A stretch of DNA of 43,165 nt from a bacterium (lineage in GTDB: Bacteria > Arandabacterota > Arandabacteria > Arandabacterales > JALGWA01): assembly GCA_050125095.1 (NCBI GenBank), contig JASFEA010000009.1, positions 1 to 43,165 of the forward strand. Direction: 5' to 3'. This document shows, piece by piece, positions 1-9,000 of this stretch. Each line of letters starts with the position of its first letter. Within the stretch, counting starts at the first letter, position 1. A program made the position numbers.

Positions 1-3000
1 AAGAGGGGCGATTTTCGTTTCCCCTGCCCCGGAGCTGGAGTGCTAAGTTCTTCGTAAACAAAGCGGGCTGTTACTTCATACCGGATATGCGGTGGTGCAA
101 GGGAGATCGGGACTATGAGGACCAGGACTTCGTGGCGCACTGCGGAGGCGGAGCCGCAATCAGCGGTTATGTTTGCGACATATTCGGACGCCCGGCGCCC
201 CACGTGCGCTTGGACGTTAAAGGGGAAGGCTATTATCCGCCGCCCTTCGACCGTACCGATTCCACCGGGTACTATGAGTTTACGAACCTGCCCAACGGGC
301 TTGAGCTGACGGTCAGACCTGAGGTTGATTACTCCATTCCCTACGAGGGATGCATACTCTGCCCGTCCGAGAGGGTGTATTACGATGTTGTCAAGGACCT
401 CACGAATCAGAACTTCACGATTTCCTGCCCCTCTCTCCCGGGCGGAGAGCCGGCCCCACTGTGCAATATCAGACCTGACCCCAATTAGGTGTGCATTTCA
501 AGACCTGACCCCAACCTGACCCCATCAGGCTATCTGGCGGACGCAGTCGATCACGGTGCCGTCCACCCACTTGATGGCGGCGACGACTTTGTCTTCGAAC
601 CCGGGACGGGCCGGCGGTCCGCCCACAATCTTCTCAACGTCGGCCTTGATGTCATGTATCGACCTTATGGGAAGGTCGGAGCCCTTGACGGCGTCTATCA
701 GGTCCCGGCGCGCGGGGTTGATGGCTATGCCCCGCTCGGTTATGACGACGTCGATGAGCTCACCGGGGCCCACGAGCGTCGTGACCTCGTCTACCAACAC
801 GGGGATCCTGTCCCTGAAAGATGGAATGGGGAGGATGGTGCACTTGGAGAAGAGGCAGTTCTGCCACCCGCCGATGCCGTGCAAGAGCAGGCCGTCCGAG
901 TGGGTGACCACATTGGCGTTGAAGTTGACGTCGACTTCGGTGGCTCCCAGCACAACGGCGTCCACCATGGTTCCGAAGAAACCCTTGCCGTTGTAATTGT
1001 AGCTCGTAAACGGGCTCGTCCAGACATGGCCGGGATTCTCCCGCATGGACCTAACGCCCTCGAGGTCGAAAGTCTGGCCGTCTAAGATGTAGTCGGTGAG
1101 GCCCTCTTCCAGCATCTCGACCAGGTACTGGGTGCTGCCGCCGCGCACGAAGCGCGCCTTGACGCCCGCCTCTTTCATCATCTCCTTAAGGTAGATTGCG
1201 AAAGCGAGCGCGGTGCCGCCGGCTCCCGCTTGGAAGGAGAAGCCCTCTTTCATGATGCCGGCGTCGCGCACGAAGCGCGCCGTGAGCTCGGCGATGAGCT
1301 GCCTGTCGGGGCTGCGGGTTATCTGCGTGGTGCCCGACACTATCTTCTCGGGATCGCCTATCCGGTCGACCTGGACCACGTAGTCGACGTAATTGCCCTG
1401 GATCTGCCAGGGAATGCACGGGAATGGAATGAGGTTGTCGGTTACCACGATGACCTTGTCGGCGTATTGCGAGTCGGCGAGCGCGAAGCCCAGCAGCCCG
1501 CACGCCGACGGGCCCGTGAGGGCGTTGGCGTTCCCGAAGGGGTCGGCCGTAGGCGCTGCGATTACGGCGATGTCTATGTGCACCTCGCCGTCCTGCACGG
1601 CCTGGTAGCGCCCGCCATGCGACCTCAAGACGCCCATGCCGCGCATCTTGCCCTCGGAGCAGTACCTTCCCAGAGGCCCGTTCATGCTGCCCTCTATGTG
1701 GTGGATCACGCCGTTGTCCATATGCTCTATGTTCCCGGCCTGGCACGGGAAGGACGCGCTCGGAAACCACATGAGGTCCTTAATGCCCATCTCGGCCGCG
1801 ACATCGAATGTCATGTTGGCGACGAAGTCGCCGTTCCGTAAGTGATGATGCGTGGATATGGTCATGCCGTCCTTGAGGCCGGCTGCCTCGAGCGCGGTGC
1901 GCAGGTCCTTTACCACCTTATTGCCGCTGGCCGGGTAGTCGGCCGCCGAGGCTATCGGGGGAGCCGCCTTGCGGCCGCCGGGCCTGTGCTTGCCGACGCC
2001 CTTGTAAGGCACCTGCTCTTTGCCGTTCACCACCGCGGGGACCTGCCTGCCGGCTGCGTTCTCAACGAGTTCGTATTCGCGTTTCATTCCGAGTCCCTCC
2101 AGTCGGCATTGAGAACCCCCGTGGCGATGGCCATGTCAACCGTGTGGAGCGCGCGCTTCACGACGGGCGGGTCGATCATCTTGCTTCCGAGGGATACCAC
2201 CCCGAGGCCCTTCTTCTCGGCCTCTTCGAAAGCCAGCACTATCTTTTTCGCCCTCTCGACCTCGGCCTCCTCCGGGGCGAAGGCCTCGTGAATCACGCGG
2301 ATCTGGCGCGGGTGTATGCATCCCTTGCCGTCGAAGCCCAGCGACTTGGCTTCGATGACGCTCTTCCTGAGTCCCGCCATGTCGCTGACGTCGCTGAATA
2401 CCGTATCTATGGGCTGGAGCCCCGCCGCGCGGGCGGCGTTTACCACGGCGCTGCGTGCCCAGAAGCTCTCGCGCCCCTCGGGCGTGCGCCGGGTTCCTAT
2501 GTCGGCGGTGTAGTCCTCGAGCCCTATGGTGAGAGCCACGTTATTGGGAGAGGCGGAGGCGATTTCGTAGGCGTTTATGGCGCCCAGGCCCGACTCGATG
2601 ATGGGCATGAGATAGACCTCGTTAGCTACGCCGCGTTCTTTCCTTACGGTCTGAACCTTCTCGTCGATGGCCTTGACCTCGTCTCCTGTCTCGCACTTGG
2701 GAATGAGTATGATATGCACATTATGCGGCACGACGCTCTCGAGGTCCTCCAGCGCGAGCTCCCCCTGGTTGATGCGCACCATGCGCTCCGAGCCGAAGAA
2801 GTCGATCTGCCTCAGGGCGTTTCGCACGAGTATCCGGGCAGCGTCCTTCTCGGAAGGGTGGACGCTGTCCTCGAGATCGAGGATGACGCCATCGGGCTTG
2901 TGAAGCCCGGCATTGACCATGAAACGGGTCTCATTCCCGGGAAGGTAGAGCCGCGAGCGGCGCATGCGGTGGCGGTCGGTGCCATAGGTGCACCCGGACT

Positions 3001-6000: not shown

Positions 6001-9000
6001 GGCCGCTTAAGATCTCCGCGGCCATCTTCATGTCCTCATAGCGGCCGTCGGTGCATGAGCCGATAAAGGCCGAGTCGATCCTCGTACCCTCGACCTCGCT
6101 TACCGGCACCGCTTTCTCGGGGTTGCCGGGCAGGGATACCAGAGGCTTAACGCGGCTGATGTCGATGTTTATGTCCTTCTCGTACCGGGCGTCCGGGTCG
6201 GCCTTTACCATCTCATAAGTCTTGCCCGTGATCTCCTTAAGCTCGTCGATGACGGCCCGGTTGGGGGGGAAGAGGATGATGATGCCGCCCATCTCGGTCG
6301 CCATGGAAGCCACCGTGACGCGGTCTGAAACGTTCATCTCCTCCACGGCGTCGCCGTACATCTCGGCCGAATACCCGAGGAGACCTCTTGCGCCCAGGTT
6401 CCTTAAGAGCTCGAGCGTGATGTCCTTCGCCGTCACGCCCTTGGGGGCCTTGCCGCCCAGGAAGATGCGGACGGACGGGGGCACGCGGAACCATACTTTA
6501 CCCGCCGCGAAGGCGTACGCAATGTCCTGGTCGCCCATGCCCTGGCCGAAGGCGCCGATGGAGCCCAGGATATTGGCGTGCGAGTCGGTCGATACGAGGG
6601 TGCCGCCGCATCCTACAAGGCCCTCGTCTATGGCTATGTGCGTTCCTATTCCCGCGTCGATGTCGTATACCTTGATGCCGCTGGCGCGCGCGAACTGCCT
6701 TATGCGCTGCTGGTTCGCGGCGTATCTCTGGTCTGAGCCGGTGGGATTGCAGTCCAGGGTAAAGAAGGTGCGGCTCGCGTCGTCTATTCCCAGGCCGTTT
6801 TCCTCGATGTTTTTGACCACGTTGGCGCCTCCGAAATCGCGCGCCAGCCTGGCGTCGATCCTCATGTCCACTATGTCGCCCGGTTTGCAACTGGAATCCG
6901 TATGCGCCGATATTATCTTCTCGATCAGGGTAAGCCCCATCTCAACCTCCCGCGGAACCGGCTCTGCGCCGGCTCCCGTGCTCTTTAACCACTCATGTCC
7001 CTCCGGCCAGCCGGCTCACTTAAGATTGGCGATAACTGCGTCGGTGACCTGCGTCGTGGTCGCCGCGCCCTTCTTGATGACGTCGGGGCCGCCGGGGAGC
7101 TTCATCATGTCGTATGTTCTGACCTCGCCCTGCTCGATCACCGCGGCGATGGCGCCGCGAATCCTGTTTGCCCTGTCCGCCTCTCCTATATGGTCGAGCA
7201 TCAGGCAGGCGCTCAAAATCATGGCCATGGGGTTTACAATAGGCGGGTCGAGGGCCTCGTACTTGGGAGCCGAACCGTGCGTGGGCTCGAATATGGCGCA
7301 TGTCTCGCCGATATTTGCGCTGCACGCGAAGCCGAGCCCGCCAACGAGGCCGGCGAAGCCGTCGGATACGATGTCGCCGAACATATTGCCGCTCACGATG
7401 GCCCCGTAGTCCTCCGGGTTCTTGGTAAGCCACATCATCTGGGCGTCTATGTTGGTGTTCCAGAGCTCTATTTCGGGGTAGTCCTTCTGTATGGTTCTGC
7501 CCGTCTCGAGCATCATGCCGGAAGTCTCGCGTATGACGTTGGGCTTCTCGCATACGGTCACCGACTTGTAGCCCTTCTTTCTGGCGTATTCGAAAGCCGC
7601 GGTGACGATTCTGCGGCAGGCTTTGCGCGTGAATATGCGCGTCGATACAGCAAGGTCCTCGCCCGGCGTGTCCTTGAAGGCCGCCATCTTGGGATGCGTC
7701 TCGAGAGCTTTCCTCACCTCCGGCGGCGGGTTGGTCCACTCGACGCCGGCGTAGAGGCCTTCCGTGTTCTGGCGGAATATGGCCACGTCGACCATGGGCT
7801 CTTCTATGCCGCCGTCGGCGCCTCTTCTTATGAAGTTCAAGGGATTGCCCTTGAACGCCCGGCACGGCCTCAGGCAAATGTCGAGGTTGAAGTGCTGCCT
7901 CAGGCCCACGATGGGGCTGTAATAAACGTAGCCCTTGTCCTTAAGTCCGGGTGCCAGCTCCTTGGCCGCCTCCGTCTTGGGCTTGGATGTGATGGCCCCG
8001 AAGAGCCCCAGGCGGTGCTCGGCCAGCACGTCCAGCGTTCTCTGGGGCAGGGGATTGCCCTCTTTTACCCAGAACTCCCAGCCGATGTCGGCATGGATGT
8101 ACTCGGCTTCGAATCCAACGGCATCGAGAACTCTTATCGCCTCGGGGAGAACCACCTTGCCGATGCCGTCACCTGGCATGGACACTACCTTACGACCGGG
8201 CATAGCACTACCTCCGAATGAAAGGGCTTAGTTGAGACCCAGGTTGAAATCCCACGCCGCATGAGGGTGGGTCCGACCCCCAACGCCGGGGCCGGCTAAC
8301 CTTGAACCACTCTATTCTATAGTAGTATTATTTGGTGTCAAGCCATCTCGGCCCGATTTCTTCCATATGGAGGAGGATTCTCTTGATAGAGACAGTCGAG
8401 GGCGATGAAGCCCTTCGCATATTCGCCGGCCATTATGCCATAGCGCCCCGGCCCGCGGATACGCAGCCTTCGCGCGGCCTCCTCGAGGCCGTGGTCAGGG
8501 ACTTCTCCAGGCTGCCGTATGAGAACATAAGCAAGATAATAAAGAGCGCCGGCCACGGGGATCCGGCGGAGTCATTCCGGCTTCCCGTGGAGGTCGTCAC
8601 CGATCACGTGGAAAGGGGCTTCGGCGGGACGTGTTTTTCCCTGACCTTTCTTCTGGAGCGCATGCTGCGGGCCCTTGGTTTCGACTGCCACAAGGTGATG
8701 GCGCATATGCATATGGGTGAGAACGTGCACTGCCTCGTGGTCGTAGACCACGGCGGCCGTCGCTTCATGATAGACCCGGGGTACGCCCTGTACGCGGTGA
8801 TCGAACTTATCGGTCGCGGGCGGACCGCCGCGCGCTGCCCGCATGCCCTTGTGGAGGTCGCGCGGGATCATGGCGGCTGCTATAATCTCTACACCGTCGA
8901 TGCCGCGGGCAGGAAGTGGAGATACCGCTTCGCAGACGTCCCGGCCGCGGACGATGAATTCGAGCGGCACTGGATCAGGTCCTTCGACATGCCGACCTTG

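Follow-up and report, generated by a model that had tools for sequence, protein, structure and literature searches.

The window analysed here (43,165 nucleotides of contig JASFEA010000009.1, from a bacterium of the Arandabacterota) carries an operon that we interpret, on balance, as a reversible C2 module interconverting 2-oxoadipate, CO2 and NADPH with 2-oxoglutarate and acetate, most likely in the cleaving direction. Free CoA is very likely used instead of a tethered cofactor, and the substrate appears likely to be of the homocitrate type, probably (S)-homocitrate. Such a homocitrate-cleaving route between 2-oxoadipate and 2-oxoglutarate plus acetate would be undescribed and present in many uncultured bacteria; no paper on a homocitrate lyase was found in the literature. 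Gene content, residue changes, gene swaps and the absence of the CitG and CitX families were computed directly; the use of free CoA, the substrate and the direction we infer.

Operon structure and gene neighbourhood

As the genome-wide survey's note had claimed, six co-oriented minus-strand ORFs form an operon at 525..8203 (Table 1), with gaps from the first to the last gene of 75, 11, 42, −8 and −4 bases. Profile searches gave the family order Iso_dh, fused Aconitase + Aconitase_C, Aconitase, Aconitase_C, ACP + HpcH_HpaI/CitE, and CitF. The putative promoter is only a hint, five sigma-70-like sites having been found against 2.6 ± 1.7 in shuffles.

Table 1. Features of the operon and its upstream region
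Feature	Position	Strand	Evidence
Sigma-70-like promoter consensus	8314..8341	-	11/12 match, ~110 bases upstream of first gene; consensus match only
Beta-decarboxylating dehydrogenase, homoisocitrate-dehydrogenase-like, probably NADP(H)-using	7016..8203	-	PF00180
Fused LeuC-LeuD type Fe-S hydratase, altered active site	5099..6940	-	TIGR01343 389.6 vs cut-off 385.7
LeuC/HacA-type hydratase large subunit, canonical active site	3828..5087	-	TIGR01343 521.7 vs 385.7
LeuD/HacB-type small subunit	3288..3785	-	TIGR02087 174.9 vs 108.95
CitD (ACP)-like domain, fusion residues 1-100	2996..3295	-	PF06857, residues 15-86
CitE-type C-C lyase domain of fusion	2084..2995	-	TIGR01588 290 vs 443
CitF-type CoA/ACP transferase	525..2087	-	TIGR01584 486.5 vs 501.45; PDB 2hj0, 1xr4

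Gene neighbourhoods were compared in 160 loci, 80 centred on the CitD-CitE fusion and 80 on the dehydrogenase. Among the neighbours of the fusion, the earlier counts were reproduced for citF (71 of 80 loci) and the fused hydratase (35 of 80), and were revised for the dehydrogenase (21 rather than 17) and for LeuC-like genes (17 + 13 rather than 26). Genes for PrpD and for an HD-domain protein, the latter present in 45 of the 80 dehydrogenase loci, are part of the module.

Loss of the carrier serine and of the maturation genes

Homologues of CitD, CitE and CitF are all present, in the D-E-F order of the citrate lyase of E. coli and Klebsiella (CitCDEFXG; EC 4.1.3.6), with which the operon also shares the CitE metal and catalytic motifs and a conserved ACP surface patch on the CitD-like domain. 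It differs from citrate lyase in that CitD is fused to CitE, the carrier Ser is Arg or Lys, a pocket Ser is Gly, CitC, CitG and CitX were not found, each part falls slightly or clearly below its equivalog cut-off, and homocitrate-type enzymes accompany the complex. Ser14 of E. coli CitD, which we take to be the site bearing the phosphoribosyl-dephospho-CoA group, aligns with Arg in 72, Lys in 7, Gln in 1 and a gap in 1 of 81 proteins (that of the operon and those of the 80 fusion loci), and the column that follows holds Ser in 79, Ala in 1 and a gap in 1; this independent alignment gives counts identical to those of the survey's note for both columns (79 of 81 each for Arg/Lys and Ser). The 20 further fusions from dehydrogenase-centred loci have Arg in 17 cases and Pro, Asp and Ser once each, the single Ser being that of locus L110, whose sister fusions have Pro and Asp. 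Arg or Lys also occupies the column in 73 of 87 more distant fusions.

The reported lack of citC, citG and citX was borne out. Searches by tblastn with E. coli queries gave no match in the genome itself, the 80 fusion loci or the 80 dehydrogenase loci; the CitG and CitX families were each found in 0 of 15 phylum genomes (85–99% complete; E. coli control positive), 13 of which have the fusion; CitG was found in neither of two genomes from other lineages; and the CitC-ligase family was absent from the genome itself (0/1; 91% complete).

The two phylum genomes without the fusion (G016 and G017) carry a module of SucC-like, SucD-like, citryl-CoA lyase, HD, LeuC and LeuD genes, in which the citryl-CoA lyase exceeds the NF004866/NF004869 cut-offs and NCBIfam gives the replacement enzymes that name; the genes for the dehydrogenase and the altered hydratase lie in the same gene run in G016 and on another contig in G017. 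That a CoA ligase pair with a citryl-CoA lyase stands in for CitF and CitD-CitE points to free CoA. Citryl-CoA synthetase plus citryl-CoA lyase (CcsAB/Ccl), like ATP-citrate lyase, reach the same C-C cleavage by way of a free-CoA thioester, and the former system occupies the CitF/CitE slot of the module in these two genomes; both rely on ATP-driven activation and a citrate-synthase fold, whereas the operon would use a TIM-barrel lyase and obtain CoA by transfer from acetyl-CoA. Characterised CitE-like enzymes act on free CoA esters, according to passages of PMC3832036.

The note's statement that no paper was found is too strong, because the fusion with CitF has been described for Ignavibacterium album (IALB_1146/IALB_1147), where it is read as citrate lyase for fermentation or reverse TCA (PMC3362086, in part); it stands for the Ser loss, on which no paper was found, and passages of the I. 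album account make no mention of the serine, missing maturation genes or homocitrate. The same fusion occurs, at 61–64% identity, in the Ignavibacteriales MAG loci L001 and L042; I. album itself was compared by description.

Hydratases, dehydrogenase and the probable substrate

The fused hydratase keeps the three cluster Cys residues but has exchanged two conserved His for Cys (32 of 33) and Thr (33 of 33), with further Asn to Ser and Arg to Lys changes (33/33), whereas active-site motifs of the LeuC/HacA-type subunit are intact in 15–16 of 16. The operon LeuC passes the hacA subfamily cut-off only, and its small subunit does not have the Arg found in the homoaconitase loop of methanogens. Both alternative hydratases tested from relatives exceed the TIGR00139 (fungal homoaconitase) cut-off (834 and 744 versus 530); this enzyme type catalyses only homoaconitate <-> homoisocitrate and requires a partner, according to part of PMC3556520. 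Fungal-type homoaconitase and the LeuC type share no locus (17 versus 13 and 15 versus 33 loci), and PrpD and the altered fused hydratase occur together in 1 of 160 loci (9 versus 35, 18 versus 10), although such mutual-exclusivity counts overstate, since many loci are short contigs, and related genomes are not independent. The PrpD homologues have 23–25% identity to E. coli PrpD, far under cut-offs.

The altered fused hydratase is a probable stand-in for PrpD at the homocitrate <-> cis-homoaconitate step; we infer that the canonical LeuC/LeuD pair catalyses the homoaconitate <-> homoisocitrate step. Aconitases work on the arm that stems from oxaloacetate, and for the arm that stems from the acyl-CoA a syn elimination by PrpD has been proposed (PMC5690661, in part). 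Si-face homocitrate poses this problem; citrate does not. The 2-methylcitrate cycle (PrpC, PrpD or AcnD + PrpF, AcnB, PrpB) likewise has a Si-face product needing a special dehydratase and a PrpD interchangeable with an Fe-S enzyme; the module differs in lacking PrpB and PrpC in its loci and in having a dehydrogenase, not a lyase, at the iso-acid step. The upper alpha-aminoadipate pathway (homocitrate synthase, aconitase + Lys4 homoaconitase, homoisocitrate dehydrogenase; methanogen AksADEF) appears to share homoaconitase- and homoisocitrate-dehydrogenase-type enzymes with the operon and also uses two hydratases for isomerisation (PMC3556520, in part). In contrast to that pathway, the module has CitE/CitF or ligase + citryl-CoA lyase and no HMGL-type (Re-face) synthase, PrpD or the altered hydratase in place of aconitase, no LysW pathway, and an NADP-type motif.

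The dehydrogenase lies under every equivalog cut-off, with the methanogen families AksF and AksF2 as its best NCBIfam matches (263 and 257 bits versus cut-offs of 500 and 540) and a putative isocitrate dehydrogenase as its best PDB match. Relative to the substrate helix of E. coli Icd, Ser is kept and Asn lost, and the Lys-Tyr of the NADP site is present; both motifs recur in 86 of 86 homologues. We take the enzyme to be homoisocitrate-dehydrogenase-like and probably NADP(H)-using. The CitE-domain model (pLDDT 93.7) matches the fold of malyl-CoA lyase and CLYBL, with Z 34.2 and rmsd 2.7 over 287 residues to 5ugr, and has the CitE-like superfamily features, namely a TIM barrel and invariant R174, E234, D261 and D375 (Arg, Glu/Asp metal site, C-terminal Asp). 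Gly324, which is Gly in 81/81 fusions, Ser in E. coli CitE and Trp in malyl-CoA lyases, widens the 2-oxoacid pocket.

We consider it unlikely that the complex is instead a cofactor-free citrate lyase, with free-CoA chemistry on citrate and the dehydrogenase and hydratases forming a dedicated reductive isocitrate-citrate branch of an unconventional reverse TCA cycle, as parts of PMC3362086 propose for I. album. The PDB match of the dehydrogenase, its NADP-site motif, which matches E. coli Icd, and the NCBIfam name of the replacement lyase would fit that proposal, as would four order genomes (G003, G004, G012, G013) with no second dehydrogenase of the family, three of them with no citrate synthase match. 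However, a single aconitase suffices for citrate, with no call for a second, unlike hydratase or for PrpD, the enzyme exchanged for the LeuC type in relatives is a curated homoaconitase, the Icd Asn is missing from the dehydrogenase throughout its 86 homologues, and the genome separately encodes a Si-citrate synthase and an aconitase, both over cut-offs, as well as an Icd-type enzyme that has both Ser and Asn.

Proposed mechanism and direction

For the homocitrate module, we propose that the dehydrogenase would carboxylate 2-oxoadipate to homoisocitrate, which the canonical LeuC/LeuD (in relatives, the fungal-type homoaconitase) would dehydrate to cis-homoaconitate, and that the altered fused hydratase (in relatives, PrpD) would hydrate the latter to (S)-homocitrate, the isomer accepted by a Si-face lyase. 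CitF would transfer CoA from free acetyl-CoA to homocitrate, releasing acetate, and the CitE domain would split homocitryl-CoA into 2-oxoglutarate and acetyl-CoA. Since CitF would take CoA from acetyl-CoA and CitE would regenerate acetyl-CoA, CoA would be catalytic and no ATP spent. More tentatively, and at somewhat less than even chance, these steps may amount to a CO2-fixing route that is widespread yet undescribed, in which the upper aminoadipate pathway proceeds in reverse and with the opposite stereochemistry, from 2-oxoadipate, CO2 and NADPH by way of homoisocitrate, cis-homoaconitate and (S)-homocitrate to acetate and 2-oxoglutarate. It would include three new enzymes: a homocitrate lyase with a cofactor-free clamp (Arg for the tether), an aconitase-fold enzyme performing PrpD's syn (de)hydration, and the HD-domain protein. 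If the homocitrate module is right, the CitD-CitE/CitF genes of KSB1, Calditrichota, Marinimicrobia, Ignavibacteria, Planctomycetota and other groups have been misread as citrate lyase and as evidence of reverse TCA; what they would mark is a C6-to-C5+C2 route in which CO2 is fixed and NADPH drawn off at no cost in ATP. The same reading also puts forward a candidate Fe-S hydratase whose stereochemistry would be new.

The cleaving direction is only slightly favoured. LysX was found in 0 of 15 phylum genomes (controls positive), and the genome has dapA and a lysA-like gene; the module is thus not needed for lysine synthesis. A piperideine-6-carboxylate dehydrogenase that exceeds its cut-off adjoins the module in loci L033 and L100, and the enzyme is present in the genomes of L042 and L056 (2/2); a class I aminotransferase lies directly upstream of the dehydrogenase in L025, L049, L062, L087 and L088. 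Lysine-breakdown neighbours occur in fewer than 10 of 160 loci, mostly in related genomes. Within the phylum, piperideine-6-carboxylate dehydrogenase was found in 0 of 15 genomes and lysine 6-aminotransferase in 2 of 15, only those without the fusion; in the genome itself the saccharopine dehydrogenase family is under cut-off and lysine aminomutase absent, and the lysine-breakdown enzymes searched gave no 2-oxoadipate source in the phylum.

That missing entry would suit the forward direction, a 2-oxoacid chain elongation in which CitE condenses acetyl-CoA with 2-oxoglutarate and CitF recovers CoA on acetate, yielding 2-oxoadipate (or longer homologues, as in methanogen Aks) and NADPH for glutaryl-CoA, aminoadipate or a cofactor. 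It would fill exactly the missing synthase step: LeuA/homocitrate-synthase-like proteins gave no match above 70 bits in 16 order genomes, HMGL-type (PF00682) matches were weak, at most 70 bits, in 9 of these and absent from 7, and LeuA had no match in the genome itself. The AksF matches of the dehydrogenase agree with it, and oxidative decarboxylation is the favoured direction of such enzymes. We nevertheless think it improbable, as CoA transfer gives condensation no pull, unlike thioester hydrolysis, the known role of the ligase and citryl-CoA lyase that replace CitF and CitD-CitE is cleavage, the neighbours seen are lysine-breakdown genes and not LysW genes, which were not found, and the LysX and dapA results leave aminoadipate without an obvious purpose.

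A dicarboxylic alkylmalate (citramalate, isopropylmalate) or 2-methylcitrate as substrate, linking 2-oxobutyrate, leucine or propionate metabolism, is very improbable: the best PDB match of LeuD is a methanogen isopropylmalate/citramalate isomerase subunit, PrpD is a neighbour and many CitE-like enzymes cleave (S)-citramalyl-CoA, but the 160 loci gave no PrpB match and one weak citrate-synthase-like match, PrpD is absent from the genome, whose sole PrpB-like match, at 31%, lies elsewhere, 2-methylisocitrate is a tertiary alcohol that the dehydrogenase cannot oxidise, the dehydrogenase substrate helix is unlike LeuB, the Trp of the pyruvate/glyoxylate enzyme pocket is Gly, and the swap partner is homoaconitase.

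A docking role for the CitD-like domain

Structure prediction indicates that the CitD domain is a probable docking domain for CitF. The predicted CitF-CitD complex scored 0.78 (best control 0.00), passing a mark that 116 of 157 solved pairs reach and 2 of 215 mismatched ones, with contacts agreeing by at least 92% between runs, partner pLDDT of at least 89, and a CitD interface of residues 14-15, 36-44 and 68-72, in which Ser15 contacts CitF 426-427. The prediction may pass through likeness to the solved MdcA-MdcC pair of malonate decarboxylase, in which the same ACP family (PF06857) is docked on a family II transferase; passages of PMC5534430 place the homologous carrier serine at Ser25 of MdcC and report that the subunits accept free CoA esters in vitro. 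Unlike the operon, malonate decarboxylase retains the serine and MdcB/MdcG maturation, and its chemistry is different. In the homocitrate module the CitD domain, devoid of cofactor, would survive as a clamp holding CitF on CitE, and Arg14 may bind a phosphate of free CoA.

The survey's note had cautioned that the neighbouring Ser could carry a cofactor. A carrier of this kind, loaded on Ser15 by another enzyme such as the module's HD-domain protein, would agree with Ser15 in 19 of the 20 further fusions as in the aligned 81, with the ACP patch and with the frequency of the HD gene. The caution is weakened, since only 38 of 87 wider fusions have Ser at position 15 (otherwise Gly, Asn or Ala; Gly in E. 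coli CitD), which lies in the predicted CitF contact; no CitG is present to make the precursor, and G016 and G017 retain the HD gene in a module with no carrier domain, so that we give this alternative very little weight. Ser14 loss together with that of CitG/CitX, the variability and predicted contact of position 15, and the G016/G017 swap support the note's proposal of free-CoA chemistry on a citrate-like acid. The operon offers a direct way to ask whether nature can do without the citrate-lyase carrier and its three maturation enzymes. All of the enzymes are soluble and can be assayed in vitro, and the fusion occurs in cultured bacteria (I. album).

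Organisation and distribution of the operon

The six minus-strand genes that the genome-wide survey's note had read as one operon (g0391–g0386, 525..8203) are upheld as such by ORF positions, co-orientation and family scan, and the operon is real and conserved. Its genes are separated, in order, by 75, 11, 42, -8 and -4 bases, with a promoter-like site (11/12 consensus match) upstream. The scores of CitD (60.7, cut-off 63.5), CitE (290, cut-off 443) and CitF (486.5, cut-off 501.45) all fall below the NCBIfam equivalog cut-offs, and by three tested criteria the complex is not a classical citrate lyase. 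The CitD-CitE fusion occurs in all 16 genomes of the order and therefore belongs to core metabolism there; at least 374 relatives were confirmed in GTDB genomes, 80 loci of which were taken for comparison. At one locus (L054:11233-12778) citF is spread over several frames, reflecting long-read errors or a broken gene.

Features of the module in the window, its own genome and two relatives
Feature	Location	Strand	Remark
Beta-decarboxylating dehydrogenase	7016-8203	minus	family scan
Fused LeuC-LeuD hydratase	5099-6940	minus	family scan
LeuC	3828-5087	minus	family scan; paired with LeuD
LeuD	3288-3785	minus	family scan; paired with LeuC
CitD-CitE fusion, 403 residues	2084-3295	minus	family scan
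CitF	525-2087	minus	family scan
G016 module	L163:7695-16484		ATP-linked version, single run
G017 module	L171:4188-9876 + L164		first six genes on one contig, last three on another
Own-genome HD gene	C50:11557-12099		off-operon contig; falls within module HD family

The earlier statement that no paper describes this system needs qualifying. A CitF with a CitE-CitD fusion was reported in Ignavibacterium album in PMC3362086, which offers citrate fermentation or an unconventional reverse TCA cycle as a proposal, while the loss of the serine, a homocitrate lyase or this module is not described in the literature searched, mostly papers open without subscription. The accessible parts of PMC3534657, PMC9560492, PMC5317091, PMC2996986 and bioRxiv 2021.05.20.444135 hold nothing on the fusion. 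The enzyme is a citrate-lyase variant whose surrounding pathway was not found described in the literature searched.

Loss of the carrier serine

The replacement of the carrier serine by Arg or Lys is confirmed in 79 of 81 fusions aligned with E. coli CitD, whose Ser14 we take to be the cofactor-bearing site (Arg 72, Lys 7, Gln 1, gap 1). The homologous Ser25 of MdcC is named as the carrier serine in PMC5534430. Among 20 further fusions the same column holds Arg in 17 and Pro, Asp and Ser once each. The near-invariant Ser at the next column, also remarked on earlier, is equally genuine in the operon-type fusions (79 Ser, one Ala, one gap) and is followed by an Asp invariant in the alignment. 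That this Ser bears the cofactor in place of Ser14 is unlikely, given its predicted contact with CitF and its frequency in a wider sample, the 87 CitD-containing proteins among the best 150 matches when representatives clustered at 50% identity were searched with a profile. Here column 15 is Ser in only 38 (Gly 17, Asn 10, Ala 9, other 8, gap 5), whereas column 14 stays mostly basic (Arg 44, Lys 29, Ser 3, other 6, gap 5), and it is therefore the basic residue rather than the next Ser that is the family trait.

A quick tree, which took in 88 of 123 rows, placed the four Ser/Thr rows, E. coli included, in a cluster apart from the window protein (SH-aLRT 99), with the operon and protist proteins on the window side, split from E. 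coli CitE and these four rows. As Arg/Lys fusions fall on both sides (22 on that of E. coli) and the operon proteins do not form a single supported clade, we claim no order of events. The loop is shortened in one sub-group of fusions (L094, L110, L117), where Pro, Ser or Asp occupies the carrier column; L094 adjoins the benzoyl-CoA pathway hydrolase Oah (over cut-off), a possible glutaryl-CoA link. Two anaerobic protists, Mastigella eilhardi (P0078, 943 aa) and Kipferlia bialata (P0107, 927 aa), encode a triple CitF-CitD-CitE fusion, of which our literature search found no description and in which the carrier column is Arg or Lys. Their lyase pocket residue is Arg, against Gly in the operon fusions, and their substrate may therefore differ. 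A further cluster (P0058) comprises 44 Lys14 CitD-CitE fusions annotated as from Methanomicrobia archaeon MAGs.

Structure prediction supports a role for the CitD domain as the docking part for CitF. The fusion is modelled well (pLDDT 93.7), and a predicted complex of CitF with fusion residues 1-100 scored 0.78 (best control 0.00). Of the solved pairs, 116 of 157 reach the mark for such complexes, against 2 of 215 mismatched pairs; these counts apply here only roughly, and the pass may stem from likeness to the solved MdcA-MdcC pair. The runs share at least 92% of contacts, with partner pLDDT of at least 89. The predicted interface on CitD (residues 14-15, 36-44 and 68-72) coincides with a surface patch conserved with E. 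coli CitD and includes a contact of Ser15 with CitF 426-427, which would explain the conservation of Ser15 without a cofactor. That Arg14 binds CoA we only infer, and the predicted complex reported no CoA contacts. Structure searches were filled by matches to the CitE barrel and were uninformative on the carrier domain.

Evidence for free CoA thioesters

The reported absence of citC, citG and citX was reproduced on a broader basis. Neither CitG nor CitX was found in 15 phylum genomes that are 85% or more complete, 13 of which encode the fusion, and for both the E. coli control was positive; CitG was also missing from two genomes of other lineages (L042, L056) and the CitC-ligase family from the window's own genome, the one searched for it. 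E. coli CitC, CitG and CitX as queries had no match across 160 loci, and none of these families occurred among 115 neighbour ORFs, which were drawn from 191 candidates with a few added by hand. MdcG, a candidate alternative cofactor transferase, was absent from the one genome searched, a weak result since the control scored only below cut-off.

Two genomes of the same class, G016 and G017, are 96% complete and lack the fusion, and encode the dehydrogenase at 58-59% identity. The G016 run comprises SucC-like and SucD-like ligase subunits, a citryl-CoA lyase that exceeds curated cut-offs (270 vs 245), an HD-domain protein, LeuC, LeuD, the dehydrogenase and a split version of the altered hydratase. 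The SucC-like subunit of both has a C-terminal ferredoxin-like Cys stretch, and an M24 peptidase gene adjoins both modules. The slot of CitF and CitD-CitE is thus filled by a ligase and lyase pair that uses free CoA. This swap, seen in two related genomes, is the strongest argument for chemistry on free CoA thioesters, and together with the loss of the serine and the absence of CitG and CitX it makes the earlier free-CoA reading likely. Isolated CitF and CitE reportedly acted on free CoA esters in vitro in work of the 1970s.

The HD-domain gene occurs in 45 of 80 loci centred on the dehydrogenase and 15 of 80 centred on the fusion. Of 53 copies, 18 keep the His of the HD motif, 26 have Ile there and 7 have Ala; the protein has no Pfam or NCBIfam match at the thresholds used; the Atlas groups it with HD clusters. 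Its presence in modules that lack a carrier domain rules out a part in carrier maturation. The own-genome copy is coupled to a gene for a 331-residue protein without NCBIfam match (C50:10565-12099, L172).

Substrate and direction

Most likely the complex works like citrate lyase, on free CoA and (S)-homocitrate. Compared with the substrate helix of E. coli Icd, the operon dehydrogenase retains the Ser but has Ile in place of the Asn, and it carries the NADP-site Lys-Tyr; these motifs are present in 86 of 86 copies. Its best NCBIfam matches are homoisocitrate dehydrogenases, below cut-off; among its PDB matches a putative isocitrate dehydrogenase ranks first and the Thermus homoisocitrate enzyme second. 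Elsewhere, the genome encodes Si-citrate synthase (732, cut-off 344), aconitase (985, cut-off 612) and a dehydrogenase with both the Ser and the Asn.

Hydratase slot A holds either the LeuC/LeuD type of the window or a fused type B (17 vs 13 of the 80 fusion loci and 15 vs 33 of the 80 dehydrogenase loci), and no locus has both. Slot B holds either a PrpD homologue or the fused hydratase of the window (9 vs 35 fusion loci; 18 vs 10 dehydrogenase loci), with both in 1 of 160 loci. These counts are inflated by kinship, near-duplicate loci and short contigs. Both type B proteins tested score above the cut-off for fungal homoaconitase, and the fungal enzyme interconverts only homoaconitate and homoisocitrate (PMC3556520). 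The fused hydratase keeps the three cluster cysteines; in 32-33 of 33 copies two conserved His are replaced by Cys and Thr, an Asn by Ser and an Arg by Lys, presumably corresponding to aconitase His101, His147, Asn258 and Arg452. Its model (pLDDT 76, active-site loops <50) is too poor to read. CitE and citryl-CoA lyase both act on the Si face, and the homocitrate would therefore be the (S) isomer, needing a PrpD-like or altered hydratase. According to PMC5690661 (section 26), aconitases dehydrate Si-made citrate toward the arm that derives from oxaloacetate, and PrpD is proposed as the enzyme of syn elimination for the arm that derives from acyl-CoA.

Citrate itself as substrate would need one aconitase only. 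The lyase pocket is in line with a larger 2-oxoacid: the Trp with which malate synthase and malyl-CoA lyase contact the methyl group of pyruvate (PMC3832036) is replaced by Ser in E. coli CitE and by Gly in 81 of 81 fusions. A role in replacing citrate synthase is rejected in view of citrate-synthase-family matches in 12 of 16 order genomes, including this one. Four of the genomes (G003, G004, G012, G013) have apparently lost citrate synthase and the second Icd-type dehydrogenase and keep the operon; in one the synthase is a 30-bit fragment only. Leucine or lysine biosynthesis is likewise rejected, with no match to LeuA, IlvI or LysX; searches of the order found neither LeuA nor a homocitrate synthase.

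All steps of the module are near enough to equilibrium that direction is not fixable from sequence. Cleavage of homocitrate is favoured by piperideine-6-carboxylate dehydrogenase, which adjoins the module in L033 and L100 (over cut-off), has homologues in L015 and L086 and occurs in both other-lineage genomes tested (L042, L056); by a class I aminotransferase that is encoded immediately upstream of the dehydrogenase in five loci and that we take to resemble aminoadipate transaminase, although NCBIfam gave no such name; and by the absence of LysX from all 15 phylum genomes, with dapA and a lysA-like gene in the window's own. Against cleavage, piperideine-6-carboxylate dehydrogenase is absent from the 15 phylum genomes, lysine 6-aminotransferase occurs among them only in G016 and G017, and in the own genome no match to saccharopine dehydrogenase reaches the cut-off and lysine aminomutase is missing. 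The three 2-oxoacid:ferredoxin oxidoreductases of this genome could join 2-oxoadipate and glutaryl-CoA in either direction.

Neighbouring genes

In L031, L036, L040 and L052 a malic enzyme-Pta fusion is encoded immediately upstream of the CitD-CitE gene, and in L048, L053 and L058 a phosphotransacetylase immediately downstream of citF, a possible link to acetate/acetyl-CoA handling. In the window, an arylamine N-acetyltransferase-like gene (8332-9198) separates the operon from a divergent pair (9362-11607, plus strand) of a DUF4416 gene coupled to a ThrRS-N-like/uridine-kinase fusion. Further along, a 783-residue protein (12905-15256, minus strand) joins an aspartate aminotransferase domain (30-388) to ~390 residues with a P-loop-like stretch and no Pfam match, and a divergent PEP-carboxykinase-like protein (16733-18727, plus strand; 299 bits, cut-off 369) has homologues near the fusion in L053 and L068.
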